Source: Escherichia phage ime
Sequence record: MN850576.1
Strand: one strand, 5' to 3'
DNA: 64,000 nucleotides
The notes under the pieces are model-generated. The model was not told the DNA's origin. It saw only the letters and a program-made list of their open reading frames with translations, and ran no database searches. Positions 7,752 to 59,087 of this stretch are shown piece by piece; position 1 is the first letter of the stretch; every line of letters starts with the position of its first letter. Made by a program: the position numbers and the translations under genes.

Positions 7752-8048
7752 ATGAAACTTTTTGAGTGGTTTAAAAAGTTTAAATATAAAGCTGTAGCCA
7801 TCGTGCCGTGGTCCATTCAGTGGGTTGATGAAGGTGGTCTACCGATACCTGGTGACAAAGATACTGGGTACTGGATTATGATGGAGAACGGGTTTGGAAA
7901 GCGAAAGTATACGTGCACAAACTCTACTCGATCTGCACTTAATAGAGTTCCTGGTTACAAACTTATGGTTGTGTGGAAAATGTCAGGCGTGCCTCCAGCC
8001 AATGCTCAATTTCTTACTGACAATCCGACCACGGTAGAGGGAGATTGA
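7752..8048 (+). CDS. hypothetical protein
   Basis: ORF track. Confidence 0.5.
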   Translation: MKLFEWFKKFKYKAVAIVPWSIQWVDEGGLPIPGDKDTGYWIMMENGFGKRKYTCTNSTRSALNRVPGYKLMVVWKMSGVPPANAQFLTDNPTTVEGD

Positions 8049-8050
8049 TA

Positions 8051-8332
8051 ATGAAAAAGATTAACAGTAGTGAAGTAGAGTTTAAACTTGTCGGAAAAGG
8101 CACTTACTGGGAAGTTCGTCAAAAGGTATATTTGTTCGGTATTATTCCCTACTGGTCTAAATTCTACTGGGGAGCTAACGAGTGGGGAAGATACGCCACC
8201 AAATCAATGGCACTTATTGGTATAGCAGAGTACATTGCAGCCCGAGATAGGGTTGGAACCACTTATTACTACACTGCTGACGATATTCGTAACAGTGTTT
8301 ACATCCCACAACCGCCTGAGGGAGACCGTTGA
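8051..8332 (+). CDS. hypothetical protein
   Basis: ATG 8051 (track ORF starts at TTG 8045). Confidence 0.5.
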   Translation: MKKINSSEVEFKLVGKGTYWEVRQKVYLFGIIPYWSKFYWGANEWGRYATKSMALIGIAEYIAARDRVGTTYYYTADDIRNSVYIPQPPEGDR

Positions 8333-8556
8333 TGAAAGTTAAAGTTTTAGATTCAAGCTTCTATATTGGTCAGGAGCCCTTAGTGGGGAAAGTGTTTACC
8401 GCTATCCCTAACGAAGATTATCCTGACCTTTTAAAAATAAAAGGTGCAGATCTTATTTCCGCTGGTGCATCTCAGGACTGCTTTGACAGCCAGTGGACCT
8501 ACAACTTTGCCCTTGGTGAGGATGTAGAGATAGTGGAGGACGAGAATGAAGGTTAA
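8329..8556 (+). CDS. small protein, paralog family A
   Basis: MMKVKVLD...KGADLISAGA motif. Confidence 0.5.
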   Translation: MMKVKVLDSSFYIGQEPLVGKVFTAIPNEDYPDLLKIKGADLISAGASQDCFDSQWTYNFALGEDVEIVEDENEG

Positions 8557-8800
8557 AATTCTTGATTCTAACGTCTACTTGGGACAATCCTTCCTGAAGG
8601 GAAAGGTCGTTCCTGCGGTATACTTTGAAGGGTTGCCGTGGGATGATCCTGTGCGGCAACATCGCAGTTATGTAGGCCACAACGTGGTGTTTATCTTGGG
8701 ATCAGACCTGATCGCTGCTGGTGCACCGGAATATTATTTCGGGGAAGAATCCTATTATGCCTTTGGGGCAGGGTCAGATGCAGAGATTGTAGAGCTGTGA
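8546..8800 (+). CDS. small protein, paralog family A
   Basis: MKVKILD...GSDLIAAGA...EIVEL. Confidence 0.5.
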   Translation: MKVKILDSNVYLGQSFLKGKVVPAVYFEGLPWDDPVRQHRSYVGHNVVFILGSDLIAAGAPEYYFGEESYYAFGAGSDAEIVEL

Positions 8801-8812
8801 TGGGTAACCGTT

Positions 8813-9211
8813 GTGAAAAATAAACTGTTCAAAGTTACAATGAAAATTCGCGGAGCTTGGAGCGTAAAGCAAGGGCGTATCCCAGAATTTGAGAAAGACT
8901 TCTACGTAGTCTCCACCTCGGAGGAGGCTGCATGCTGGCAGGCTGGCTATGCATATGCAAGAACCTGGTACGAAGGATACCAGACTGGTGGCTATGACGG
9001 AGAAATTATCAGCAAGGGTGTAGAAGAAATTAATGTGTTGACAAGTGAAAAAGTTTTTGTTATAGTGCATCCAGATTCCAGAGTGAAGCATTACTGGAAT
9101 GCCAGAACAAAAACTTGGACACCGTTTGCAGATTCTGCTACACCACTTTTAAACCAGAAAGCTCTTGACTCTGTCCCGAGCTATGGGGTTGTTGAAGAAA
9201 AGCTAAACTGA
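8813..9211 (+). CDS. hypothetical protein (paralog of 11018..11413)
   Basis: Shared FVxxHPxSxxxYW...WTP motif. Confidence 0.5.
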   Translation: MKNKLFKVTMKIRGAWSVKQGRIPEFEKDFYVVSTSEEAACWQAGYAYARTWYEGYQTGGYDGEIISKGVEEINVLTSEKVFVIVHPDSRVKHYWNARTKTWTPFADSATPLLNQKALDSVPSYGVVEEKLN

Positions 9212-9228
9212 AACGGTGAGGTACTAAC

Positions 9229-18469: not shown

Positions 18470-18733
18470 TTATTTGTTGCTCATCCAGTTTTCCCAAGCT
18501 GCCTGATAATCTGCCTCACTACGGCGGATCTCTTCTTGTTCTTCACGCCGGATCTCTTCTTCCAGGTACCCCAGTATATCGGCTTTTTTGGTCTGGCGTA
18601 ACATCCAATCATCTTTTTTACGAGTAAAGATCTTATAAGCTTTCTCGCAAACCTCTTTTTTGCTACCTTTCTGGACTTCAAGAATTCTGTAGGCCATGTA
18701 CTGAACTAATTTAAGCTGATCCAGACGTTTCAT
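18470..18733 (-). CDS. hypothetical protein
   Basis: ORF track. Confidence 0.45.
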   Translation of the reverse strand: MKRLDQLKLVQYMAYRILEVQKGSKKEVCEKAYKIFTRKKDDWMLRQTKKADILGYLEEEIRREEQEEIRRSEADYQAAWENWMSNK

Positions 18734-18810
18734 GATGTTTCCTCTTTATGTGGTTCGTTTTGATTAGTTGATAATACAGCAGTTCGCAGATCAGTCTTTA
18801 GCAATTCATG

Positions 18811-19029
18811 CTATTTACTCACAACGGTGTCGAAAACAAATTTTTCTTTATTGTCTAAACTCACGTATCCGATTCGACCACGCAAGCCGCAAGTAGTGCC
18901 GTACTCGTAACCATTAAGGCCTTTAACCTTCCAATCCGTACCCATTAAAACCGCATTATATTCCTGACCAACTACAAAAGCGCCCCCAGTCGATTCAATG
19001 CAAACAACTTTAATTTTACGGGTTGTCAT
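18811..19029 (-). CDS. hypothetical protein
   Basis: ORF track. Confidence 0.45.
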   Translation of the reverse strand: MTTRKIKVVCIESTGGAFVVGQEYNAVLMGTDWKVKGLNGYEYGTTCGLRGRIGYVSLDNKEKFVFDTVVSK

Positions 19030-19089
19030 TTTCTTTCTCTCTTTGTGTGGTTCTGATTAGTGGACCTTTTGGCCCGTGTCATTATCTTA

Positions 19090-19362
19090 TTACTTGCGGC
19101 GGCAGAATTCAAGCGTTTTTAATTGATAATCTTCCTCAGCCTGGAGTACTACCGCCTCGATCATTTCGTTGGCATTGTTAAAGCCATAACCTTTAGCGAA
19201 CTCATCCGCGCCACCTTCGTGATCATGTTCTGCGTTCATCGCTTCCACAAAATGGAATTCCAAATTGTTGAGGTAGGGGCTTGATGTGCCGTCTTCTTTT
19301 TCGATGAGATCCCAAATAGCATTAAAACGTGATTCGACTTCTTGATTAATCCAGCTTGACAT
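19090..19362 (-). CDS. hypothetical acidic protein
   Basis: ORF track. Confidence 0.5.
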   Translation of the reverse strand: MSSWINQEVESRFNAIWDLIEKEDGTSSPYLNNLEFHFVEAMNAEHDHEGGADEFAKGYGFNNANEMIEAVVLQAEEDYQLKTLEFCRRK

Positions 19363-19391
19363 AGTGTTTTCCTCTCTCCTGGTTATTGTGT

Positions 19392-19405
19392 GGGCACTTT
19401 TGCCC
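19392..19405 (-). promoter_or_regulatory. GC-rich 5' UTR hairpin (GGGCA-CTTT-TGCCC)
   Basis: ~30 nt upstream of start at 19362. Confidence 0.4.
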
Positions 19406-19573
19406 CTTCAAGATAAATGTTACCCCACCCCATGGCAGATGTCAACGGTTTTTATAGTTCTTATATGACAGGCAGGCCCGGTGATTGTCTCCACCCGTCG
19501 CCAGGTGCCTGCCGTGAAACAAGTATAACAAAAAACAGGACCATTGCAAGCCCTGTTTTGTAGTTTATAAGGA

Positions 19574-19765
19574 TTATATTTTTTCGCCTATGTAGTCCGG
19601 TCGGTTTTTCTCTGTCATGCGCTTGAGCAATTCTTGCATGTTGCTTATGGCTTGCAGTGTATCCCCTTCCAGACTTGAATCAACATAATCAGGATCGTCT
19701 ATAACCTTTCTATGATTATGATAACGCAGTACCGCCAATACCTTTCTAACTTGTTCGATATTCAT
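19574..19765 (-). CDS. hypothetical protein
   Basis: ORF track. Confidence 0.4.
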   Translation of the reverse strand: MNIEQVRKVLAVLRYHNHRKVIDDPDYVDSSLEGDTLQAISNMQELLKRMTEKNRPDYIGEKI

Positions 19766-19777
19766 TTTTATCGCTCT

Positions 19778-19912
19778 TTAAAACAAGGTGCCAACCGTTC
19801 CCAATAGATCACTGACTACCAGGACAATACTGATCAGCACATACCTAACCATAAGGGGAAAGAGCGCCAGCGATCCAGCCACAATCCCCAAGGTGATGAT
19901 TATCTTTCTCAT
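19778..19912 (-). CDS. small hydrophobic protein (44 aa), below track cutoff
   Basis: ATG 2 nt after upstream stop; hand-translated, stop verified. Confidence 0.3.
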   Translation of the reverse strand: MRKIIITLGIVAGSLALFPLMVRYVLISIVLVVSDLLGTVGTLF

Positions 19913-19914
19913 GG

Positions 19915-20199
19915 TTAACGGTTTACGTAAGCTTTACCGTTTACGGTGATGGGCAGGTCTTCCAGGTCTGGATCTTCCTTAAGGTCGCGAGCAAGCTCAC
20001 CGCACCGGATACCCTCGAATCCGTAGTACTCTGTTGTGCCGTCATTAAAAGTTTTAGCGGCAAGGCATAAGCGATAAGTAACCCCGATTTGATTGACGGC
20101 ATGGATATCCGTTAGATTAACCTCTTTTGCCAGCTCTTTAGCCATTACAGGCGCATTAAGTCCAACAACCAGGGCAACTACTGCGATCATCTTTTTCAT
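19915..20199 (-). CDS. secreted/periplasmic small protein (signal peptide)
   Basis: MKKMIAVVALVVGLNAPVMA N-terminus. Confidence 0.5.
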   Translation of the reverse strand: MKKMIAVVALVVGLNAPVMAKELAKEVNLTDIHAVNQIGVTYRLCLAAKTFNDGTTEYYGFEGIRCGELARDLKEDPDLEDLPITVNGKAYVNR

Positions 20200-20290
20200 T
20201 GTGTCTAGCCTCTTTCTGCTACGTTTAAGGCGGCGGTAACCGCCTGTTTATGATTTATTGGTTAATTTTCAGGTATCGCTATAAATTAAA

Positions 20291-20515
20291 CTATGCTGTA
20301 CGCTCAACTATAACAACGGTTTGAGGGATCTCACCTTCTACCACTATCAAGGCCTTTTTCTGCGTGATGGATATCTTTACCCGTTGCAGCGTGGCGGTGA
20401 AGTCTTTCATTTCGTCACGTGGTGTTTTAGTGCAATGCCAGATCTCAGGCTTACCTATTTGCAAGCCGCGTAAAAATTCTGTTTTACCTGTCTTATTCGT
20501 GATCATTTGATTCAC
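20291..20515 (-). CDS. hypothetical protein
   Basis: ORF track. Confidence 0.45.
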   Translation of the reverse strand: MNQMITNKTGKTEFLRGLQIGKPEIWHCTKTPRDEMKDFTATLQRVKISITQKKALIVVEGEIPQTVVIVERTA

Positions 20516-20516
20516 C

Positions 20517-20720
20517 TTAACCGATACCGTGGGAAGATAGGATCATGTTAGCCATAGTTGCAACCACTCCAACCGATAATGCCAGGCCAACTACTACAAC
20601 CGTGAAAATTTTCTCTAACATGATTCTACCCTCATTAATGGGCGTTGCCTTATTGCCCCGCCCTACGAAATACAGTCTATCAAGTAATAAACTATTGTCA
20701 AGATTTATTTTACTTCCCAA
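20517..20720 (-). CDS. small membrane protein
   Basis: ORF track; hydrophobic C-terminus. Confidence 0.4.
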   Translation of the reverse strand: MGSKINLDNSLLLDRLYFVGRGNKATPINEGRIMLEKIFTVVVVGLALSVGVVATMANMILSSHGIG

Positions 20721-20842
20721 ACGGAAAATTCACTACCTGGCGGAATCATCTTTTTAATCTTGTTTGCTGCTGCTACCAGATCCACGGCTTGTACTGTAAT
20801 AATATAACCAATTGTCGAGGCTGTTGCGTTGAAAGTTTTCAT
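20705..20842 (-). CDS. small protein (45 aa), below track cutoff
   Basis: ATG with GAGGGTAA RBS; hand-translated, stop verified. Confidence 0.3.
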   Translation of the reverse strand: MKTFNATASTIGYIITVQAVDLVAAANKIKKMIPPGSEFSVWEVK

Positions 20843-20861
20843 TAAATTACCCTCATTAATG

Positions 20862-20878
20862 GCGGGAAGTATTCCCGC
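20862..20878 (-). promoter_or_regulatory. 5' UTR hairpin (GCGGGAA-GTA-TTCCCGC)
   Basis: Perfect palindrome between candidate promoter (~20891-20919) and start at 20842. Confidence 0.45.
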
Positions 20879-20924
20879 GCTATGTAGTACACTTTACCAG
20901 ATTGTTGACTGTTGTCAAACTATT

Positions 20925-21104
20925 TTAACGATAATCATCATATGCTTTATTGACCTGGCGAATATAACATTCAAAAGCTAAATCAATAGATTTATATTCA
21001 CGGATATATTCACCATAGGAAACCACATACATTTCTATAGCTTCCTCATATGCGAGGAGAATAGAATCTAAGCCTACGATCTCAGTCTTTGCAATAATAG
21101 CCAT
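20925..21104 (-). CDS. hypothetical small protein (59 aa)
   Basis: ATG with AAAGAGGATAAAAATC upstream; hand-translated, stop verified. Confidence 0.4.
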   Translation of the reverse strand: MAIIAKTEIVGLDSILLAYEEAIEMYVVSYGEYIREYKSIDLAFECYIRQVNKAYDDYR

Positions 21105-21129
21105 GATTTTTATCCTCTTTGTGGTTGGT

Positions 21130-21144
21130 GGGGCTTGTTGCCCC
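21130..21144 (-). promoter_or_regulatory. 5' UTR hairpin (GGGGC-TTGTT-GCCCC)
   Basis: ~25 nt upstream of start at 21104. Confidence 0.45.
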
Positions 21145-21179
21145 CTTTGATTTATATTCTACAGTCTTATAAGGTCATG

Positions 21180-21389
21180 TCAACTATTTTCAAAAAATTT
21201 TTCTGCTGTAATATTTTTCCCGGTAGGGTTCGCTACTTTCAAAATTTTATCATGCACTGGACGCCCAAAAGAATAATCGCCGTCAGGCTGTACTATTACA
21301 GCCGCATAGGGTACGCCTTTTTCGTTTTTGCTGACAAAATAGATCACGTTGCCATTAATAGCCTCGGCGCGTTTAATTTGTTCCATCAT
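21180..21389 (-). CDS. hypothetical protein
   Basis: ORF track; AAGAGAGG RBS. Confidence 0.45.
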   Translation of the reverse strand: MMEQIKRAEAINGNVIYFVSKNEKGVPYAAVIVQPDGDYSFGRPVHDKILKVANPTGKNITAEKFFENS

Positions 21390-21421
21390 GATGATTTGCC
21401 TCTCTTTATTTTCATAATTGG

Positions 21422-21438
21422 GGGGCCTTTTCGGCCCC
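21422..21438 (-). promoter_or_regulatory. 5' UTR hairpin (GGGGCC-TTTTC-GGCCCC), followed by GCCCCGCCAGGTT motif
   Basis: ~33 nt upstream of start at 21389. Confidence 0.45.
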
Positions 21439-21445
21439 GCCAGGT

Positions 21446-21730
21446 TTATTTATTGATAGCGTGCAGCGGGAAAGGTACGCCAGGTTGATAGATAACTTTT
21501 ACAACCTCATCAGAGCAAAAGAAATTACAAAATTCACCCTGGTAAGCCTCATCCTCTTTTAATTCTTCATCAACATACTGGAAAAAGTAGTCAATGCTTG
21601 GATAATCCTGACCGGGATTATATTCAACCATGGTTAATAACAATTCTTGATCATTCCGTATGATATGCATACCAGCTTTTAAGTATTTGGCTTCCATTTC
21701 TACTACATCGCCAACGGTAACAATAGCCAT
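21446..21730 (-). CDS. hypothetical protein
   Basis: ORF track. Confidence 0.5.
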   Translation of the reverse strand: MAIVTVGDVVEMEAKYLKAGMHIIRNDQELLLTMVEYNPGQDYPSIDYFFQYVDEELKEDEAYQGEFCNFFCSDEVVKVIYQPGVPFPLHAINK

Positions 21731-48827: not shown

Positions 48828-50810
48828 TTATTTGGTGTTATTCTTTGCGTCGATCAGTTCACGGTATTCAATCATAGCAGGAGTGTCCCAATATTTCAAG
48901 CCCACATGCTTCAAAAGTGGATATTTCTTTTCCAATCTTGCAATATAGGCCTTCCCGCACTTGACTCGGTTGGCGATTAAGATTTTGGCACGATGATTTA
49001 GCTCACTGTGCTTCCACGCGGTGTTACCTTCCCACTTGTGGAAATGTGGCCGATAATTTCCAAAATCTTGCATGGGGATAATTTTCCCTAATTGTCTATA
49101 CAGGCTGTCATATGAAGTTTCATTTGCTGCGCGAGTCAGTAAGAATTTCCAGGCGTCCTCTTTCAACAAATGTTCCACATTTTTCTCTGTAACATACTGG
49201 CAATCAGGATCAGTCCAAAGCAGACGAGATTCTGATACCAGGTACAGATCTTCCCCTTCAGGAATCTGGAGTGCCGCACGCACACGGTCATAATTTTGCT
49301 GGTAGATGTTACTTAGCTGTCCCAGCCAACAACTTCCACGTTGGATATCACCCTCATAAGGAATGCAGTGCTTAATCTTCTTGAACTCTGCCTTAGTAAT
49401 ACGTTCACGACGGAAGTAACCATCCTTCTCAAGCTTTTTAACCCAATAACCTGGCTCGTAATGAGTTTTTGTTTCACCTTTCTTCGCAGGTCGGCGAGGG
49501 AGCTCTGATAACAATTTGACAGTATCTGCAAAGAACGGATGGTGTGCCGCCTCTTTAAACTCTTTCACCAGATCCGTGTTCCGGCAATAGAAAACGTTGC
49601 GTCCGGTGATTTCGCTTAAGTAGTTACACTTATTTCGGTTATATTTACCATCTCCGTCGTTAAATACAAGGTATACACCTCGTAAGAACTCCGACTTTCC
49701 GTAACGAGCATAGCCTATGCGGTCTTTATTTAAGCCGCCAGCGAAAATTTCACAATCGCCTAAGTCGCCAAGCCCTGTTTCTTCCCAACGGTTCCACATA
49801 AAGTTTTTGCCGAAGATGTGTCCGAACACTCCACTATTCTTCATCATTTCACGTGCTTCTGCGGAGGTTTTTGCCGTCTCCAGTTCTGCAATAACTTCTG
49901 CCCCGCGAAGACGTATACCTTCTTTGACAAAGGCCTCCAGGCGATCCTGGAATCCACCGTCGTCATGGCCCTCTATGGTCCATTCACGCCCAGGGTTAAT
50001 ATTGCAATCCCCAATAGGAATTTCCACGCAGATTGCAGGGTAATCGGTCAATGTCTCCAGGAACTTGGAGCGGTAAGGTTGGTGACCCATCACAACACGG
50101 CTCTCATCAGAACTGGTATAACCTTTCAGGATGGTCATTTTCCAGCCATCCTTCTCGTAATGATACTGTGCCTCAACCTTGTCACCTTCTAACATCTTAC
50201 TGGTCATAGGATCGGTGACGATGAACGGAAACTTCGCATAGCGTAAGCACGATGCAATAGCAGTGCGATATTTCAGGACATGCTCTTTCTTAACATGGAA
50301 CTGAACTTTTACCCCGTTGTGCTCTTCAGTCTTCCGCTCACGGATCTTGGTAACGTTTGGGATACCCTGATCCAAGAACAATAGATATGTGCTTTCAACA
50401 CCATTGTGCACACTGATAACATCGAAAGTGTCCACCATACTGAACGGAGCCTTTGAACCAACACCTTTATTACCTACCAGAGCGTTGCTGTTGCGCTTGG
50501 TTGACTCCCCGAGATTCATGAAAGTGTTGCGGACCATCTCTTCTGACATGCCCAATCCAACGTCCTGCACAAAGAAGTATGGTTCAAGGTCTGTAGGAGA
50601 GTGAATGATGATCGGTACATCACCCCGTCCAGACTCAACATGGGAGTCCACAGCATTGAAGATTGGTTCACGGCAGCTTGCCAGCACCTTATCTTCGTAA
50701 ATCCCTTTAATGATTAGCCCAAAAGTCTCTTTGTTCAGAGAAATTGAGCCCCTGGTGACCTCCATATTTCCGGTCAGCACTGCTTTAGTTTCATTACTGT
50801 TTACAATCAT
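48828..50810 (-). CDS. rIIA-like protein with N-terminal GHKL (histidine-kinase-like) ATPase domain
   Basis: N-box FNAVDSHVE, D-box QDVGLGMS, G-box GNKGVGSKAPFS; AAGGAGCG RBS. Confidence 0.6.
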   Translation of the reverse strand: MIVNSNETKAVLTGNMEVTRGSISLNKETFGLIIKGIYEDKVLASCREPIFNAVDSHVESGRGDVPIIIHSPTDLEPYFFVQDVGLGMSEEMVRNTFMNLGESTKRNSNALVGNKGVGSKAPFSMVDTFDVISVHNGVESTYLLFLDQGIPNVTKIRERKTEEHNGVKVQFHVKKEHVLKYRTAIASCLRYAKFPFIVTDPMTSKMLEGDKVEAQYHYEKDGWKMTILKGYTSSDESRVVMGHQPYRSKFLETLTDYPAICVEIPIGDCNINPGREWTIEGHDDGGFQDRLEAFVKEGIRLRGAEVIAELETAKTSAEAREMMKNSGVFGHIFGKNFMWNRWEETGLGDLGDCEIFAGGLNKDRIGYARYGKSEFLRGVYLVFNDGDGKYNRNKCNYLSEITGRNVFYCRNTDLVKEFKEAAHHPFFADTVKLLSELPRRPAKKGETKTHYEPGYWVKKLEKDGYFRRERITKAEFKKIKHCIPYEGDIQRGSCWLGQLSNIYQQNYDRVRAALQIPEGEDLYLVSESRLLWTDPDCQYVTEKNVEHLLKEDAWKFLLTRAANETSYDSLYRQLGKIIPMQDFGNYRPHFHKWEGNTAWKHSELNHRAKILIANRVKCGKAYIARLEKKYPLLKHVGLKYWDTPAMIEYRELIDAKNNTK

Positions 50811-51319: not shown

Positions 51320-51343
51320 TAGAAAATCCCCGCCGAAGCGGGG
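51320..51343 (-). terminator. rho-independent terminator (minus strand)
   Basis: CCCCGC-CGAA-GCGGGG hairpin followed on minus strand by ATTTTCTATTT. Confidence 0.5.
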
Positions 51344-51747: not shown

Positions 51748-52932
51748 TTAAGCTTTAGCCAAAATGGCGCTAAACTCTTCACCAAACTCTTTTACAATCT
51801 TCATCAGGTTTGGGTATGCTTTGATCAGCTGAGCAACAATCTTGTCACGCCCTTTACCGATAAGCAAGGCATTTCCTAAGGCATTAGGTTTCATCATCGC
51901 CATAAAGACTGAGAATACAAAATCTCGGTTCTCGTCCTTGAAGTTTTCCCAAAGGAAATCGAGGAAGTTTGCCACGCAGCTGACAAGATCTTCGTCTGAG
52001 ATACTTGCATTTTCCATCATATTGCGAATAGCGATACAACCTTCAGATCCAAGAATCCACAAAATGTCTGGCTGCTTAGGACCTACGTATTCTTTGCAGC
52101 CACCTGCCATAATCCGACCGATTTCCGGTAAATTACGTTTCTTGGTGTGGTAAGTCCAGATCTCTACCGCTGCAGTGTGACCAATAGCACCTTGTAGAAG
52201 AACACGGGCCATAGCGTCAGAAATAATACCGCTGTCAAAATCGTGCAAGATGTCAGATGCAGCAACCCAAGATCGTGGTGTGGCAAAAGATGGACAATTA
52301 ATCTCAGCCATAGCCTCATAATTATCAATAGCTGATGGAACTCTTTTCAGATACCCAATTACAGAGGAGTGAACCCCGTTGAGGAATGCGTAGTCCTCAA
52401 TAAACACCTCTGCATTGCTTGTAACCTCTACAATGATAAAACGGTTAGCCAGAGGGGCTTCGAGCGCCGAAAGAACCGCACCATCTGTAGAACGGTTACC
52501 CGCAGCCACAAAAACAGAACCCTTAGGGAATGCATAGGTGCCGCACTTGTGGTCAAGCATAATTTGCATTGCAACCTTTTGCAGGTAGTTATCTGCATGA
52601 GTGAGCTCATCCAGAAAGATAATTCCGCTCCAGTCAGGATCCGCAGGCCAAAATTCTGGAATTGCAAACACTGTACGTGTAGTTCCATCCGCTTCTACAG
52701 GGATAGGTAGCCCAGATAAGTCGGCAGGATCTTTATCTGACAGTCGCACGTCAACAAGGTTGTCATCTCGCTCACCGAACATATTATCAGCGATCTGCTT
52801 CATCACCTGGCTTTTACCCACACCCATTGGTCCCAAAATTAGGACAGATCGGCTATGACGTTGGGCAAACTGAATAATAGCTGGCAACTCACGGACAGTG
52901 ATTTGACCACTTTCGAATACGTTTCTTGACAT
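51748..52932 (-). CDS. AAA+ ATPase, MoxR-like
   Basis: Walker A GPMGVGKS, Walker B IIFLDEL. Confidence 0.7.
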   Translation of the reverse strand: MSRNVFESGQITVRELPAIIQFAQRHSRSVLILGPMGVGKSQVMKQIADNMFGERDDNLVDVRLSDKDPADLSGLPIPVEADGTTRTVFAIPEFWPADPDWSGIIFLDELTHADNYLQKVAMQIMLDHKCGTYAFPKGSVFVAAGNRSTDGAVLSALEAPLANRFIIVEVTSNAEVFIEDYAFLNGVHSSVIGYLKRVPSAIDNYEAMAEINCPSFATPRSWVAASDILHDFDSGIISDAMARVLLQGAIGHTAAVEIWTYHTKKRNLPEIGRIMAGGCKEYVGPKQPDILWILGSEGCIAIRNMMENASISDEDLVSCVANFLDFLWENFKDENRDFVFSVFMAMMKPNALGNALLIGKGRDKIVAQLIKAYPNLMKIVKEFGEEFSAILAKA

Positions 52933-53201
52933 TAGTAAAAGTCCTCTACTTGTGTGTAAGTGTTTTCAAAGTTTTCCAAAACAGATATCACATCGAATCT
53001 GTCAATATCATACGTGACTCTCCAGTTGTACGCAACCCTTTCTGCTGTTGCCTCTTCTGGCGCTAGTCGTCTGCTGGCATAAAAGAGTGTTGGAGTACAC
53101 TTTCTTGCTTGCCCTCTAACTTTCCCATAATAATATCTGTGAATATCTTTGTCAAAATTTAACTCTTTTTCTGCACGAAGTTCATATTGCTGGTATAACA
53201 T
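52932..53201 (-). CDS. hypothetical protein
   Basis: ORF track. Confidence 0.45.
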   Translation of the reverse strand: MLYQQYELRAEKELNFDKDIHRYYYGKVRGQARKCTPTLFYASRRLAPEEATAERVAYNWRVTYDIDRFDVISVLENFENTYTQVEDFY

Positions 53202-53245
53202 CTCTACTACTCCTTAAGCAGCATCCTTGCCGCCATTCCTGCCCA

Positions 53246-53626
53246 CTAAAATGCAGTCCGAATCCAGACAAGGTTCTTATCTGCCCAATCATAGAGGCAA
53301 GTCATTGCACTATTGAATTGCTCACACGGAGGATAATCTTCTTCCATCTGGCGCATAGCAGAGCCTTGTGGGTAAAGCTCCCGTGCTGCAAACCACGCGT
53401 CGTAGTCATCAACGGTGTCGAAGTAGTATACAACATCCTCTAACTCAGGATCGAACTTTGAACTATCAGGATCCAGTTGTTCAGGGAACTTGGAGCGTAA
53501 CTTGCCAGCCACAATACTTGCCAACTCGCTAACATGCTTATTGTCCCACTCCACTAGCTTCCCGTCTTCAGTGATGCGTCCTAACCACTGATCATGAAGG
53601 TCAACTGTTGTCTTCCACTGAGCCAT
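53246..53626 (-). CDS. hypothetical protein
   Basis: ORF track. Confidence 0.5.
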   Translation of the reverse strand: MAQWKTTVDLHDQWLGRITEDGKLVEWDNKHVSELASIVAGKLRSKFPEQLDPDSSKFDPELEDVVYYFDTVDDYDAWFAARELYPQGSAMRQMEEDYPPCEQFNSAMTCLYDWADKNLVWIRTAF

Positions 53627-53628
53627 TA

Positions 53629-53889
53629 TCAGTCCACCTCTTCTTCTCGTTGTAGTTCAAGATACCCGTAGGTCTGGACATCTTGAAGGGTGTGGAACTC
53701 CCCCCCCTCTGCCGCTAAGGCACGAACAACTTGGCACAAAACCTTATGAGGAACTTCATCCAAACCTAGATTCAGTGCAGGAAACACCTTATCTAAGTCA
53801 ACAAAATAAACGAACTGTAGCTCACCAGCTTCAAAAGGTGTATCTTCAATAAACATCTTCTCGGCATTAGTCAAGATCTGCACTTTCAT
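53629..53889 (-). CDS. hypothetical protein
   Basis: ORF track. Confidence 0.45.
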   Translation of the reverse strand: MKVQILTNAEKMFIEDTPFEAGELQFVYFVDLDKVFPALNLGLDEVPHKVLCQVVRALAAEGGEFHTLQDVQTYGYLELQREEEVD

Positions 53890-54245
53890 TATTCTACCTC
53901 CTCTTCTTTTTCTTCGGCATTAGTTTCATGGCTACCCCACTCGGGAGTTTCCACCTCGATAGTAAACTCACGCACTACACGGTAATTGCCCATGAAGCGC
54001 TCTACTTCGTCAAGGCTTATGGAGAGGCCATTGGCAACCAGGTCTGCAGCACCCTCTTCTACCAGGTAGTCCAGATTGGCTTCCAGAGCCTCAGGTTCAA
54101 ACCCTGTCAATGCAATCAGATAACCTTCCCCTTCATCAGGGAGGACAATACAGCCCAATTGATTTTCTTTAAAAAGGCAGTGACCATCATTATTGATTGG
54201 GTGTTCATTGCAGTAAATAGCTGCACGATAAGTAACTTTAGACAT
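53889..54245 (-). CDS. hypothetical acidic protein starting MSKVTYRA
   Basis: ATG 54245 with TAAGGAGA RBS; first 8 codons lie in the 29-bp inverted repeat. Confidence 0.5.
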   Translation of the reverse strand: MSKVTYRAAIYCNEHPINNDGHCLFKENQLGCIVLPDEGEGYLIALTGFEPEALEANLDYLVEEGAADLVANGLSISLDEVERFMGNYRVVREFTIEVETPEWGSHETNAEEKEEEVE

Positions 54246-54250
54246 CGGTA
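54222..54250. repeat. 29-bp inverted repeat, copy A
   Basis: Reverse complement identical to 56085-56113 (TACCGATGTCTAAAGTTACTTATCGTGCA). Confidence 0.7.
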
Positions 54251-54258
54251 AGGTCTCC

Positions 54259-54537
54259 TTAGGCAATTGTCGTTTTACATTCTTGAAATTTTAACACAAG
54301 ACGGTGATTGTGTCTAGTGTCTAAAAAGATTTTTTCAACCATCAGGCACACGGTATAACCGTCAATCTTGTTGACAACAAAATCTCCAGGATGAGGGAGG
54401 ATGTCTCCCGGATTGGGGAAACATAGTCCACTCAGAAAGGCATCGTCAGTGGTGGACTTAATAGATTTCCACACACTGTCTGCCTGAACATGTTCACCGA
54501 CGTAATATACATTACCACATGCCTTCATCATAGTCAA
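54259..54537 (-). CDS. hypothetical protein
   Basis: ORF track. Confidence 0.45.
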   Translation of the reverse strand: MTMMKACGNVYYVGEHVQADSVWKSIKSTTDDAFLSGLCFPNPGDILPHPGDFVVNKIDGYTVCLMVEKIFLDTRHNHRLVLKFQECKTTIA

Positions 54538-55433
54538 ACCCTCGCATAAATTAAACTTGTATCAGTATACTTCTTTAATGGGTAAATATCCTGTCCATAG
54601 ATGCAATCATTAAACACCTCATCTACCCAAAGGCTACACTTATATCCCATCATTTCTAAAACACCCATCTCTTCTTCGGTAAACTTATCACCGCTCTTGC
54701 AAGATGTCAATACCTCATTCTGAACTCTTGCTACCTCGAAGCGGTTATTGGCAATATCGCTATTGGCGATCAAATACTCACCTAGAGGGTGTGCGGCATT
54801 AAAGATGCACAGTGGACGGCTGACGTAATAGTCTCCAGGTGTATAAAAATTGTTGAGGTCTTTCACTAGAACATTCTTATCAGTCACTTCATTTATAACA
54901 TCATGCATATCGCACATCTTTATATGTTTGAGGATTCCATCCCCCATCACAAAATAAAAACTTGCTGAGACACTTTCGGCATAGATCTTACTAGATCCGT
55001 TGTAGTTGTATTTTACTCGGATGCTAACGGGGGTTTTTCCTGTCGCGTTAGCCATCATCCAAAGAAATGGCAGCTCATACTTCTCCTCTGAGGAAACAAA
55101 AGGTGAGGTAGCCAGAGATCGAAAACCTCCAGAGAAGTTGAAAGTTACAGAACCGCTCCGGCGGTATGATACCGCGTATTCTACTTTTATATCGACATAC
55201 CCATTGGAATAGGTGTGTCCTTCATTATCTAAATATGTCCACTTATCAGACCCAGATACCAATCTACGCTCAATAACCTTCATCACTATAGGAATTAATG
55301 GGTTGGTACAAACCGCTTTTGAAGTAGCTTTATCATCTAAAGCCTCGTAAATTGCAGAAAGGATGTCCCCAGCTGAAAGATTGGTTGTTATGTCCTGTTT
55401 CCACCGCGTACTAAAACTGTTAAGATTTGCCAT
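54534..55433 (-). CDS. hypothetical protein (299 aa)
   Basis: ORF track; first gene of leftward block. Confidence 0.55.
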   Translation of the reverse strand: MANLNSFSTRWKQDITTNLSAGDILSAIYEALDDKATSKAVCTNPLIPIVMKVIERRLVSGSDKWTYLDNEGHTYSNGYVDIKVEYAVSYRRSGSVTFNFSGGFRSLATSPFVSSEEKYELPFLWMMANATGKTPVSIRVKYNYNGSSKIYAESVSASFYFVMGDGILKHIKMCDMHDVINEVTDKNVLVKDLNNFYTPGDYYVSRPLCIFNAAHPLGEYLIANSDIANNRFEVARVQNEVLTSCKSGDKFTEEEMGVLEMMGYKCSLWVDEVFNDCIYGQDIYPLKKYTDTSLIYARV

Positions 55434-55515
55434 AAGTAAGTGCTCCTATGTTAGTTTTCTTTCGAATGGGTGCACTATATTGTGGAGTTAGAGTAAAGTC
55501 AACACGTTTTTGATG

Positions 55516-55544
55516 TTGACATCTGTTGAGACAATTGATACGAT
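55516..55544 (+). promoter_or_regulatory. sigma70-like promoter (TTGACA-17-TACGAT)
   Basis: Divergent from leftward block. Confidence 0.5.
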
Positions 55545-55575
55545 TTCTTCACTTACAGAGCACGAGAGACGACTC

Positions 55576-56553
55576 ATGAATCTTGAAAAATATTATACAC
55601 CAGAAGAGTTAGAGCGCTTGCTCAAAAAATATAGACGCAAACAGAATAACGCACGGAAACGAGATATAGAGTTCGACCTGTCATGGGAAGAATACCTCCT
55701 ATTTGGTAAAAAACTTTTAGGAGATGGAGTATGCGACTATACCCTTATACCTTTTGACATGCACACAGATGAAAACGGGCTGGGGAATCCTTTCTACCCA
55801 TCTCTGGAGCGGATAGATGATGAAGGTCCTTATGCGGTTGATAACTGTTGTGTGGTGGGATTGAGATGCAACTCTCTAAAGGACTGTCTGGTAGATAAAA
55901 AGACTGCAGTCTTGATTAAAGACGAAACTGATCGAAAAATTGTCCAGCAGATGATGCTCCACCTGAGCGAAGAGCGTATGGAGAAATTGAAAGGTGATTA
56001 TACTTTTGAAGATTTCATCTTGCAATATGGAACGGAAGAGGATAAACTAGCACTCTTTGACGAAGAAGAGGAGGAAGATATGCTACCGATGTCTAAAGTT
56101 ACTTATCGTGCACCCAAGAAGCACATTTCCGACATTGTAAACGAGCCTATCACAGAAGAGATTGAAGAAATGACGCAACAGGTGCATGAAGAGGAAAAAG
56201 AGACTCAGGAGGTCGAAGAGGAGCTTACAGAAGAGGTTCCTGCACTACCTGATGATGTTGAGATTGCCAAAGCTTACACTTTCTATTGTCAAACGTTCTA
56301 CGATGTAGGTATGAAAGTTGATCTGTCGTTCAGCCAATTTAAGAGTTCGTATATTCGCAAATGCTGTGCTTTAACTGGTGAACGTCTTGGAGCTGGACTT
56401 AAACCCCTGTTGGTGACCGACTGGAATAAAGGTTTCACTAAAGGAAACTTTATGGTAGTATCTCCAATTATGGAGAAAGCTATGACAGATCTTATGAAGA
56501 CCACCCGCATGACAATGACCGAGTTGGCAGGTATTTTCAAACACGTTAAATAA
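55576..56553 (+). CDS. hypothetical protein (325 aa) with possible internal start at 56091
   Basis: ATG 55576 downstream of promoter; in-frame internal GAGGAGG RBS plus ATG at 56091 inside 29-bp repeat. Confidence 0.5.
   Translation: MNLEKYYTPEELERLLKKYRRKQNNARKRDIEFDLSWEEYLLFGKKLLGDGVCDYTLIPFDMHTDENGLGNPFYPSLERIDDEGPYAVDNCCVVGLRCNSLKDCLVDKKTAVLIKDETDRKIVQQMMLHLSEERMEKLKGDYTFEDFILQYGTEEDKLALFDEEEEEDMLPMSKVTYRAPKKHISDIVNEPITEEIEEMTQQVHEEEKETQEVEEELTEEVPALPDDVEIAKAYTFYCQTFYDVGMKVDLSFSQFKSSYIRKCCALTGERLGAGLKPLLVTDWNKGFTKGNFMVVSPIMEKAMTDLMKTTRMTMTELAGIFKHVK
56085..56113. repeat. 29-bp inverted repeat, copy B
   Basis: Identical to reverse complement of 54222-54250. Confidence 0.7.
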
Positions 56554-56565
56554 TGACAGGGGCCA

Positions 56566-58047
56566 ATGGCCCCTTCTGGAGTTTTAATGGATAGTAGAAG
56601 TTCAGAAATCATTGCCTCGCAGAAAGATGATGCCCTGAGAATGTTGCAGGCTGCACGTATGTATCTCCTTGAAAAGCTGCCGTTTTATGGCACACTACTG
56701 TCAGGGTTGCAGTTCGTAGAAAACCACACATGGTGCTCCACCATGGCAACCGACCATAAACGCATCTATTACAGTCCTGAGTTCATTATGGGATTGGCTG
56801 ATGAACGCAAGGCTATTCTTAAGGCTTCTCTAACTGACGAGCAGTTTGAGATGGCTGAAGTTTTCTATTCCCCAAAATCTGTGAAAGAGGTGGCCTTCCT
56901 TCTGTCACATGAGGTGGGGCATATTATCTGTGATCACCTAGTCCGTGGTAAAAGCTTTGAGCCGGAACTGTTCAATATTGCTTGTGATCACGTTATCAAC
57001 ACAGGCCTTGTGGTTGACTTTAGCAAACCTCCTTGTGTTTTCTTCCCGAAGGGGAAAAGCACTACGTTCATGAAAGGTAAGCCTTTTGGCTTCTTAGCCA
57101 GCTGCTACTGCGACATGAAGTTTCATGGATGGATTGCTGAGAACGTTTATGCAGTTCTTGATAAGCAAAGAGATCAGAATAACGGTAAAAGTAAGAACGG
57201 TAAAGGTGAGAACTCTCAAAGTGATAAGCGACAAACCGATGATCACATGAGTGGGAACGGTGGCACCAGTGATAATCTTGGAAAGGCTATGAGGTATGAT
57301 CAGCCACAACCTGTAATCAGCCAATCTGATAAAGATCAGGCCATGCAGGACTCTGGTGATATGCTGGAGGCAGCAATGCAAGCGTCCGGAGGCCGTTGCC
57401 CTGAGGCGGTGCGTGAGTTTGTCAAGAACAGAGGTAAGCCTGTAATCAACTATATAGACATCATTAAGCAACGTATGTTGTCTAAAAGAAAGGCCGAACT
57501 GACCTACAGAAAACCTGGTCGCCGATCTGGGTCTTTGACCAGCACAATGCGAAAAGTTGGGGCTATAAACAAGAACCAGCACGTTATTGTTCCTGGTCGT
57601 AATCCGGAAAACACTATAGATATTGTGGTGGCTTTAGACGTTTCTGGCTCGATCTCTCAAAGAACTTTAAAGAAAATGTTCAATGAAATCACCGGATTGT
57701 GCAATCTGTATAAAGAGTTTAAGGTTACAATGTTCTGTTGGTCAACTGAGGTTGGAGAGGTTAAAGTATACACTCGCGGCAACATAGACGAGATGGTCAA
57801 CTATGAGGTCCACTCAACATGGGGCACAACAGCTGCTTGCGTGTTCGAGTATCTGGATGCCAACATACCTAATGCAAAAGATGTCATCGTCCTGACCGAC
57901 CTATACTTTGAGCATAACTTTGAACAAAAGGTTGTTGACAACAAGTGGAAAAAGTACGATACTCTATGGGTCCTCACTGAGGGGTATAATAAAAATTATA
58001 TCCCGAGCTTTGGGAAAACTGTGGAATTAATCGAGTACGCTAAGTAA
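56566..58047 (+). CDS. VWA-domain protein with N-terminal HExxH metallopeptidase-like domain
   Basis: HEVGH; MIDAS-like DVSGS; alternative start ATG 56587. Confidence 0.7.
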   Translation: MAPSGVLMDSRSSEIIASQKDDALRMLQAARMYLLEKLPFYGTLLSGLQFVENHTWCSTMATDHKRIYYSPEFIMGLADERKAILKASLTDEQFEMAEVFYSPKSVKEVAFLLSHEVGHIICDHLVRGKSFEPELFNIACDHVINTGLVVDFSKPPCVFFPKGKSTTFMKGKPFGFLASCYCDMKFHGWIAENVYAVLDKQRDQNNGKSKNGKGENSQSDKRQTDDHMSGNGGTSDNLGKAMRYDQPQPVISQSDKDQAMQDSGDMLEAAMQASGGRCPEAVREFVKNRGKPVINYIDIIKQRMLSKRKAELTYRKPGRRSGSLTSTMRKVGAINKNQHVIVPGRNPENTIDIVVALDVSGSISQRTLKKMFNEITGLCNLYKEFKVTMFCWSTEVGEVKVYTRGNIDEMVNYEVHSTWGTTAACVFEYLDANIPNAKDVIVLTDLYFEHNFEQKVVDNKWKKYDTLWVLTEGYNKNYIPSFGKTVELIEYAK

Positions 58048-58062
58048 GAGAGGAGGTTATTT

Positions 58063-58326
58063 ATGGCAACAGAGTTAAAATTTGCATCAAACCGTAAAAC
58101 TAAGAAGTATCTGTCCTCAGTAGCTCCAGGCACTGTGGTGATGTTTGTTGATGAACTTGGGGATGTGAATACAGCACTTGTTGTAAAATCACATCCTGCA
58201 AACATATATGTTGGGGTATTTGACCTGTTCAGAAAGGTGTTTGTAGAACTGCCTCACAGTTTGGTTGTTACAGAAATGGATGCCTGCATAGAAATTCTTG
58301 GCGAAGTTATGGTGGAGGAACAATAA
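58063..58326 (+). CDS. small protein, tandem paralog 1 of 4
   Basis: GAGAGGAGG RBS. Confidence 0.5.
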   Translation: MATELKFASNRKTKKYLSSVAPGTVVMFVDELGDVNTALVVKSHPANIYVGVFDLFRKVFVELPHSLVVTEMDACIEILGEVMVEEQ

Positions 58327-58589
58327 TGGCTACCAGCATTGTATTCAATTCTAAGGTGAAGAACAAAAAGCGTGCAGACAGTTTTCCGTGTGGGACCGTG
58401 GTAAGTTGCGACGGAGACGGCATTCAAAACATAGTTATGATTGTCAAAACAGGAGAACATTGTGTGTGGGGGTTCGATTTAGAAAATAATGAGTTGTACG
58501 ATCTGCCGCCAAACATGAAAGTTACAGAGCTTGACACCAAAATTACCATCCTTGGAGAGACAAGCTATTCAAAAGAAGGAGGAGAATAA
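58326..58589 (+). CDS. small protein, tandem paralog 2 of 4
   Basis: TAATG overlap. Confidence 0.5.
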   Translation: MATSIVFNSKVKNKKRADSFPCGTVVSCDGDGIQNIVMIVKTGEHCVWGFDLENNELYDLPPNMKVTELDTKITILGETSYSKEGGE

Positions 58590-58852
58590 TGACCACAAAA
58601 ATCACTATCGCAGAACCGAAAGCTAACACTCAGCCTATCGAAAAGTTTAAGTGCGGTGAGGTGGTAACATTCACACCAGATAATGAAGATGCTAAGATTT
58701 TCGCAATGGTCACAGCTGAGTGGATGTGTGACAACACCACACAGGTTCTGCGTTTTGACACCTATCTTACCGATGAAATCAGGAACGACAAGATTGTGAC
58801 TGGTGTGGATACTGAGATTGTTTTCTACAAGAGCTTTTTAGAGGGTTTCTGA
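58589..58852 (+). CDS. small protein, tandem paralog 3 of 4
   Basis: TAATG overlap. Confidence 0.5.
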   Translation: MTTKITIAEPKANTQPIEKFKCGEVVTFTPDNEDAKIFAMVTAEWMCDNTTQVLRFDTYLTDEIRNDKIVTGVDTEIVFYKSFLEGF

Positions 58853-58853
58853 T

Positions 58854-59087
58854 ATGGCAAAAATTAGAAAATTATCTAGCAATCAGGTTGTGAAAGACTT
58901 CGAATCTGGAGAGATTCTTTATGTTCGTGATGCAGATGACGAAGGTGAAGATCTCGTTATGTTGGTGGGGCACGCTGAGGACGGATGCATCCAAGCTGTT
59001 TTTCTTGAAACAGCTATGGTGCACTGGATAGAGCTGGACCTGAAAGCACGAAAACCTAAAGCAGAAATCCTGATTTACGAAGATTAA
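58854..59087 (+). CDS. small protein, tandem paralog 4 of 4
   Basis: ORF track. Confidence 0.5.
   Translation: MAKIRKLSSNQVVKDFESGEILYVRDADDEGEDLVMLVGHAEDGCIQAVFLETAMVHWIELDLKARKPKAEILIYED

Follow-up and report, generated by a model that had tools for sequence, protein, structure and literature searches.

A MoxR-class ATPase and a zincin-like VWA protein of Escherichia phage ime probably belong to a conserved two-gene module split by inversion in vequintaviruses

NorQ–NorD is the reference for how a MoxR-class AAA+ ATPase works with a von Willebrand factor A (VWA) protein. [quoted passage not shown] Related pairs are encoded by phages. Iyer, Anantharaman, Krishnan, Burroughs and Aravind (2021, Viruses 13:63; PMC7824862) described a MoxR plus metallopeptidase-vWA chaperone-cochaperone pair in group 2.2 jumbo phages, and the AAA+ ATPase gp24 and the vWFA-domain protein gp25 of N4 are middle genes that are among the ~14 core genes of N4-like phages (Schitoviridae) (PMC4193335, PMC7650795). 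Here we analyze such a pair in a 64,000-nucleotide (nt) stretch of Escherichia phage ime (sequence record MN850576.1), which is referred to as the window. A MoxR-class ATPase is encoded on the minus strand (51748–52932), and a protein with a zincin-like HExxH motif and a VWA/MIDAS domain is encoded on the plus strand (56587–58047). The genes are divergent with 3,654 nt between them, which agrees with the opposite strands and 3.6-kb spacing reported in a first-pass annotation made from the sequence alone. The two genes are probably the vequintavirus copies of a conserved, self-contained two-gene module of virulent phages and cellular genomes that has been split by an inversion and works in a NorQ–NorD-like manner.

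The N4 proteins are homologous to the window pair. Alignment with hhalign matched the ATPase to N4 gp24 at 99.9% (E = 1e-34, 279 columns) and the VWA protein to N4 gp25 at 100% (E = 4.5e-51, 359 columns), and gp25 retains the HExxH, NxAxDxxIN and MIDAS residues, although sequence identity between the N4 and window proteins is only ~23–27%. An rIIA gene lies near the pair in both genomes. The N4 genes are adjacent, co-directional and 167 nt apart and are transcribed as middle genes by the phage RNA polymerase RNAPII (PMC4193335), whereas the window genes diverge and lie behind host-type promoters. The pair from group 2.2 jumbo phages has the same domain architecture and is a pair of the same kind, and the pair of the jumbo phage RaK2 matches both window proteins. 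The jumbo phage genes are adjacent and have a proposed virion-assembly role, whereas the window pair is split and sits in an early-gene context in a phage with a genome of only 135–140 kb. The p618 (MoxR) and p892 (vWA) proteins of Acidianus two-tailed virus (ATV) are likewise a virus-encoded MoxR plus vWA pair and a morphogenetic precedent, but they belong to an archaeal virus and lack a peptidase domain, and they are set beside the window pair by description (PMC7824862). The VWA protein of the window shares the tripartite layout of NorD, including a disordered linker (residues 201–228). NorD and CbbO differ in having unrelated N-terminal domains without HExxH and metalloenzymes or Rubisco as clients, and the window pair offers only a candidate segment for the finger-in-pore contact of NorQ–NorD. 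AAA+ zinc proteases such as FtsH, which also join an AAA+ motor to an HExxH zinc peptidase, are a functional analogy with no homology claimed. FtsH is a single membrane-anchored chain of the classical AAA clade that holds both the motor and an M41 peptidase and threads substrates through its pore, whereas the window activities lie on two polypeptides and combine a MoxR-clade motor with a VWA adaptor.

The ATPase (394 amino acids; rV5 gp4 and the homologue of N4 gp24) was assigned from its open reading frame (ORF), a match to phrog_1297 (E = 2e-110), its motifs and its structural model. Alignment located Walker A (GPMGVGKS, 52810–52833), Walker B (IFLDE, 52606–52620), sensor 1 (N146, within 52492–52503), LANRF with the arginine finger R164 (52438–52452) and sensor 2 (ATPRSW, 52267–52284), and the AlphaFold2 model located the helix-2 insert region (52657–52752), all on the minus strand. 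The residues G34xxGxGKS41, L107-D-E109, N146, R164 and P219-R220 are invariant across 36 aligned ATPases that range down to 29% identity. DSSP analysis of the AlphaFold2 model (pLDDT 84, pTM 0.73) finds a β-hairpin at residues 76–89 (strands 76–81 and 84–89) between β2 and the Walker B strand, and a second, short hairpin is located at ~129–134, ahead of sensor 1. In the model, these two hairpins correspond to the inserts of the MoxR/chelatase/McrB/dynein clade. Foldseek with the ATPase model returned NorQ/CbbQ (CbbQ2) at all of ranks 1–16 (E = 2e-8 to 4e-7, TMt 0.60–0.66), and the list also holds Cytophaga MoxR (2r44) and cso-CbbQ. Sequence identity between the ATPase and NorQ is 16–18%. Homologues at ~34% identity to the ATPase (E ~1e-44) carry PF07726/PF07728, mostly marked weak. 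The intact motifs, the modeled hairpins and the Foldseek ranking uphold the first-pass identification of a MoxR-like AAA+ ATPase, which by transitive homology appears to be a divergent branch of the MoxR class. A sequence search of the PDB returned no close structure for the ATPase or the VWA protein, and an NCBIfam search of the pair returned nothing informative.

The VWA protein (486 amino acids; rV5 gp12 and the homologue of N4 gp25) matches PF13203 DUF2201_N (E = 3e-28, 99.7 bits, cut-off 23.2) and PF09967 DUF2201 (VWA-like; E = 2e-11, 44.3 bits, cut-off 26.4), both above the Pfam gathering scores and in N-to-C order, which makes it a member of the DUF2201 family. The zincin-like motif HEVGHIICDH (56908–56937) is followed by NIACDHVIN (residues 130–138), the disordered linker (57187–57270, low complexity in the model) and the MIDAS elements DVSGS (57637–57651), GT (57823–57828) and TD (57895–57900), all on the plus strand. 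Across 31 diverse sequences H108, H112, N130, D134, N138 and Y188 are invariant, E109 and H117 are conserved in at least 90%, and the MIDAS residues D351, S353, S355, G413-T414 and T437-D438 are invariant. The structural model (pLDDT 82) consists of a confident helical N-terminal domain with the HExxH motif within helix 99–118, the linker, and a C-terminal α/β domain that has the Rossmann-like VWA fold with a complete MIDAS. A basic hairpin segment at residues 303–340 (57493–57606, plus strand) contains the conserved sequence TYRKPGRRS, and R312, R313 and P336 are conserved in at least 90%; this segment is a candidate finger for the ATPase pore. The only other signals at the HExxH region are a weak Pfam M48 match (E = 0.0085), the only other family at the motif, and weak PDB matches to minigluzincin MJ1213 and an M48 peptidase.

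The first-pass annotation described this protein as 493 residues encoded at 56566–58047 with an HEVGH motif and a VWA MIDAS. The domains and the end of the gene stand, and the start does not. The ATG at 56566 was rejected: it has no ribosome-binding site and lies within the loop of hairpin AGGGGCCAATGGCCCCT. The ATG at 56587, 21 nt further on, has GGAG 5 nt upstream, agrees with the LL12 annotation and with the N termini of homologues, and is almost certainly the true start. The hairpin AGGGGCCAATGGCCCCT is GC-rich and perfect (56558–56574), lies between the stop codon of the preceding gene, which encodes an Srd-like protein, and the ribosome-binding site of the VWA gene, and could attenuate read-through or stabilize the transcript.

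Linkage of the two genes was measured in viral contigs sampled by ATPase-based scans. In an 80-contig sample whose loci come mostly from one aquatic lineage, 68 contigs hold both genes, and the VWA gene is directly downstream on the same strand, 61–575 nt away, in 66 of the 68. Each of the 12 contigs that lack a VWA gene stops no more than ~1.1 kb from the ATPase. A second sample was more diverse and comprised 77 loci, 75 of them informative; at 66 of these 75, both genes are within 10 kb of each other. These 66 comprise 31 loci with adjacent genes on the same strand, 11 with the VWA gene 1–9 kb downstream on the same strand, one with the VWA gene upstream on the same strand, and 23 with divergent genes (17 from the Vequinta-/Seuna-/Mydovirus clade and six from other lineages). 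A marine phage ATPase that is 34% identical to that of the window is directly followed by a DUF2201_N plus DUF2201 gene, and the ATPase-then-VWA adjacency is also found in Certrevirus CR9, Aeromonas phage 2L372D, RaK2, N4, a 578-kb probable megaphage contig and a 1.25-Mb cellular contig. Most other lineages have the two genes side by side and in one direction, in line with the first-pass statement that a MoxR ATPase usually sits beside a VWA partner, and synteny in relatives shows the same partners. The two proteins also co-diverge, with a Mantel r = 0.955 over 54 non-redundant pairs that was reached in 0 of 2000 permutations, and r = 0.92 among distant pairs only. Co-divergence excludes partner swapping, and linkage and co-divergence together support the earlier view that the genes are a pair. 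No conserved third partner was found; none recurs among 121 neighboring ORFs from 14 lineages. A tblastn search of ~50,700 phage records found the VWA protein in 618 and the ATPase in 812, and the VWA (DUF2201) family comprises 5,485 protein clusters at 50% identity (E ≤ 1e-3).

The origin of the split arrangement was traced within the Vequintavirinae. In Certrevirus CR9, the ATPase gene (18696–19919) is followed by the VWA gene (19989–21539) on one strand. The divergent layout has a gap of 3.6 kb in Vequintavirus, 4.3 kb in Seunavirus LNA4 and 4.6 kb in Mydovirus. Gene-by-gene comparison of CR9 with LNA4 and Mydo shows that the flanks are colinear and on the same strands, the left flank consisting of a SleB-like hydrolase and a phosphatase and the right flank of the VWA gene and the genes downstream of it. 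The block from the HD-phosphohydrolase to the ATPase is reversed in both order and strand relative to CR9. The adjacent state of CR9 is ancestral because all outgroups are adjacent, and one inversion in the ancestor of Vequinta-, Seuna- and Mydovirus explains the split, which fits the first-pass suggestion of a rearrangement. The new switch point is now separated from the VWA gene by the Srd-like gene. The Srd-like–VWA linkage is common to Vequinta-, Seuna- and Mydovirus and to a 136-kb vequintavirus-like contig (IMGVR_UViG_3300045988_163358; L008/L106), and it is absent in Certrevirus.

The first-pass annotation correctly placed a divergent promoter region and a 29-bp inverted repeat between the two genes, but the repeat is unrelated to the split arrangement. 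The perfect repeat (54222–54250 and 56084–56112), whose arms bracket the promoter region, is confined to the window and the near-identical LL12. It was rejected as the cause or footprint of the split, being absent from relatives L002 and L003 and from all distant genomes that share the split. The chance expectation of a perfect 29-mer inverted repeat in 7.5 kb is ~1e-10 by our own rough arithmetic. Both arms encode 5 nt plus MSKVTYRA; one arm is the N terminus (first eight codons) of a 118-residue gene on the minus strand (53889–54245) and the other lies inside the Srd-like gene. L002 and L003 are 94–98% identical, lack the second arm and have a different 14-residue segment there, so that the Srd-like protein reads ...MSPMQDFKNFMANRGANKH... 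in relatives and ...MLPMSKVTYRAPKKH... in the window. The repeat looks like a recent short inverted patch copy (micro-conversion) from the 118-residue gene into the Srd-like gene. Were the arms to recombine, the promoter region would be inverted and the genes would exchange their 5′ parts; no invertase gene was seen near the repeat.

Expression was predicted from consensus matches. A 142-nt intergenic region (55434–55575) contains back-to-back σ70-like early promoters (55474–55544), with TTGACT-17-TATAGT directed leftward (55502 to 55474, minus strand) and TTGACA-17-TACGAT with an extended TG directed rightward (55516–55544, plus strand); each scores 10/12 in the consensus scan. Both −35 boxes are within the palindrome GTCAACA...TGTTGAC, and the rV5 paper independently predicted the same promoter pair as P010/P011. 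The Srd-like "anti-sigma factor" gene (55576–56553, plus strand; rV5 gp11; phrog_3118/phrog_1400), assigned from PHROG matches, annotations and synteny, is the first gene of the rightward early unit and is directly upstream of the VWA gene. On the left, the terminator scan found an intrinsic-terminator-like hairpin, CCCCGCTTCGGCGGGG, with a T-run (51328–51343, minus strand) ahead of the SleB-like hydrolase gene. This hairpin would terminate the leftward early unit, which runs from gene 10 to gene 3 and includes the ATPase, and the rV5 paper lists the same terminator as t003 (ΔG −16.0 kcal/mol), just downstream of gene 3. These predictions place the ATPase (gene 4) in the early unit that runs leftward and make gene 12, which encodes the VWA protein, second in the rightward one. 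The inversion would not have uncoupled expression because both genes are in the first operons flanking the bidirectional promoter, and they appear to have been kept in the same temporal class. The strongest σ70-like match of the region, TTGACA-17-TATTAT (11/12 in the consensus scan; 53127–53155, minus strand), sits inside an 89-residue ORF ~195 nt upstream of the ATPase start; it is not in the rV5 promoter Table S4 and is, speculatively, an extra promoter for the ATPase.

Gene neighborhoods in 14 lineages consist mostly of DNA and nucleotide metabolism genes, with an occasional portal, terminase or tail gene and no recurring structural gene. The neighbors in N4 and many lineages include ThyA, a 5′–3′ exonuclease, PIF1, RecA, RNA ligase and dCTP deaminase. 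In the 578-kb probable megaphage contig (L099, JGI 3300046660), the pair is embedded among HSP20, ClpS, ClpP and a T4-type RNA ligase 1, and this proteostasis-flavored neighborhood is the only contextual hint seen toward protein quality control. The rV5 virion proteins listed from mass spectrometry include neither the ATPase nor the VWA protein, which would suit any non-structural role. Together with the timing (an early operon in the window, middle genes in N4), this absence points to an intracellular job in early or middle infection and away from a virion component. An rIIA-like gene is located within ~1–3 kb of the module both here (48828–50810) and in N4 (rIIA/rIIB, record L178, 6461–10001), and this proximity in two unrelated phage families could be chance or a common early/middle "host-interaction" neighborhood.

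The VWA protein has the three-part layout of NorD but a zincin-like N terminus, from which we infer an ATP-driven remodeler whose adaptor cuts or grips its client. By analogy with NorQ–NorD and CbbQ–CbbO, the ATPase would form a hexamer, one VWA protein would dock onto this hexamer and place a finger-like element in its central pore, and the MIDAS face would bind an acidic residue of the target protein. Driven by ATP, the VWA domain would rotate relative to the N-terminal domain and stretch the linker, and the rotation may either bring the target to the HExxH site to be cut or un-gate that site.

Several observations weigh against a conserved module that works in this way. Binding of the ATPase and the VWA protein to each other is predicted from the analogous systems. 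The VWA protein is assigned by PF13203 and PF09967, but the ATPase, assigned by phrog_1297, falls below the Pfam cut-offs (16.7 bits against 22 for AAA_5, PF07728, and no match to AAA_3, PF07726), and its placement in the MoxR class therefore rests on motifs, predicted fold and transitive homology. Nine ATPase loci of the diverse sample have no VWA gene within the stretch examined, and in phage G no ATPase is encoded within 4 kb of the VWA gene. In the L008/L106 contig, the ATPase is at ~4–5 kb and the VWA gene at ~103–105 kb, so that even in a circularly permuted genome at least 37 kb would separate them; this separation is either a further rearrangement or a misassembly. An interpretation of L008 as a genome with the VWA gene and no ATPase was rejected, as the ATPase is encoded far away on the same contig. 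Any two genes that are inherited vertically should co-diverge. The catalytic glutamate or the entire HExxH is missing from a few homologues (P0025, with HAVCH, and P0026), and proteolysis may therefore not be the essential activity. The promoters and terminators are consensus matches only, and the 20 promoter-like sites found compare with 14.4 ± 3.9 in shuffled sequence.

The only published proposal for the function of such a pair is virion assembly, in which a chaperone/protease folds or processes structural proteins as envisaged for ATV p618/p892. Iyer et al. (2021) proposed this role for the group 2.2 jumbo phages and cited the ATV precedent (PMC7824862). The RaK2 pair directly follows three genes annotated as virion structural, portal and terminase genes are among the neighbors in a few lineages, and a chaperone need not appear in the virion proteome, from which both proteins are absent. 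The window genes, however, lie in predicted early operons behind host-type promoters, beside the Srd-like gene and rIIA, a long way from the late structural module, their N4 counterparts are middle genes adjoining dCTP deaminase, and the mainly DNA and nucleotide metabolism neighbors in 14 lineages include no recurring structural gene. The usual company of the module is early and nucleotide-metabolism genes, not structural genes, and the virion-assembly proposal is therefore weakened; the context argues weakly against it, and we consider it possible but doubtful. The same context gives somewhat more room, still short of an even chance, to an early or middle intracellular remodeler-protease that acts on a host protein (takeover or counter-defense) or on replication-associated complexes. 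The early-operon position beside the Srd-like decoy and rIIA, the middle class and replication/nucleotide neighbors in N4 and many lineages, and the megaphage pair among HSP20, ClpS and ClpP are consistent with this role. The case is purely contextual, however, and known anti-defense homology was not found: PADLOC gave only P-loop-level matches for the ATPase at E > 0.002 and none for the VWA protein. The module is conserved across phages of Bacillus, cyanobacteria and Proteobacteria, and this range of hosts favors a phage-encoded or universally conserved target over a strain-specific defense protein. The most specific form of this idea is a two-polypeptide ATP-gated protease, in which the MoxR motor would twist the VWA adaptor to switch on or feed the HExxH site against a conserved early/mid intracellular target (host takeover, counter-defense or replication) and not for virion assembly; stated in full, it is unlikely.

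A chaperone for metal or cofactor insertion would resemble NorQD, CoxDE, CobST and BchID, and its HExxH would bind a metal or target without being a protease. Most characterized MoxR–VWA pairs insert metals or cofactors (PMC9976466, PMC13036017), NorQ and CbbQ are structurally closest to the ATPase, and the homologues without a catalytic glutamate or HExxH fit such a function. This explanation is nevertheless improbable, as the invariant H108 and H112 and the at least 90% conservation of E109 in the 31 sequences form a pattern characteristic of active zincins, no further Pfam family except M48 is matched at the motif, and no obvious metalloenzyme client recurs nearby. Least probable of all is that the vequintavirus genes are no longer partners and that, after the inversion, each acts alone or with something else. 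The opposite strands and 3.65-kb distance, the L008/L106 separation and the ATPase loci without a nearby VWA gene would fit a dissolved partnership. Against it, the whole split clade has kept both genes at identities as low as 45–53%, with every catalytic and MIDAS residue intact, the two proteins co-diverge, both genes are still beside the same bidirectional early promoter, and similar splits arose independently elsewhere with neither gene lost. The conserved two-gene module split by inversion remains the reading that we consider probable.

The 7.5 kb around the gene pair is 99.8% identical to Escherichia phage Murica and 97.7–99.8% identical to the other 24 rV5-like coliphage records among the matches listed, and the source phage of the window is a Vequintavirus (rV5-like coliphage). 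Vequintavirus records label the genes "MoxR ATPase" or "ATPase" and "putative metallopeptidase" or "VWA-like domain containing protein," and the 2013 rV5 paper named gp4 "MoxR - ATPase" and gp12 a DUF2201_N protein. The gene pair is annotated in GenBank for this phage species, and this kind of system has been described in the literature. Literature searches returned nothing on rV5 together with MoxR or on COG3864, and a single genome announcement on DUF2201 in phages. The CRISPRi-ART paper used vequintavirus EdH4, and the knock-downs reported for it are of rII only.

Database records of this locus and its homologues contain several irregularities. The PHROGs label of phrog_1314, the VWA/zincin family, is "HNH endonuclease," and it has spread to N4 gp25 (record L178, 2165–3307), RaK2 gp481 (record L015, 4010–5395), phage G gp576 and many RefSeq phage records. 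An HNH nuclease has no support in the sequence or model of the VWA/zincin protein, and the PHROG-derived label on this protein is a propagated misannotation; the Srd-like family phrog_3118 bears the same doubtful label. In the rV5 record (DQ832317), the VWA gene is split into gp12 (441 amino acids, 7756–9081) and gp13 (81 amino acids, 8972–9217), whereas the window and other relatives have one intact ORF of 486 amino acids. The split is either a frameshift of that isolate or a sequencing error. Sixteen records titled Campylobacter phage match the region, 15 of them with Campylobacter jejuni as host, and Campylobacter phage C12 (MG065635.1) is 99.5% identical to it among the matches listed. These records are probably mislabeled or contaminating coliphages. 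Directly downstream of the VWA gene are four abutting small ORFs of 87, 87, 87 and 77 amino acids (58063–59087), of which the first two are clear paralogues (38% identity, both phrog_10698) and the other two are of similar size and weakly similar (15–22%).

The module is very widespread: its N4 counterparts belong to the core gene set of the N4-like family, and jumbo phages and cellular genomes carry it as well. To this distribution the present locus adds little new. What the vequintaviruses illustrate is that the module tolerates splitting by inversion while both genes stay under the same early bidirectional promoter. If the ATP-gated protease proposal were true, two of the ~14 core genes common to all N4-like phages would have an assigned function.

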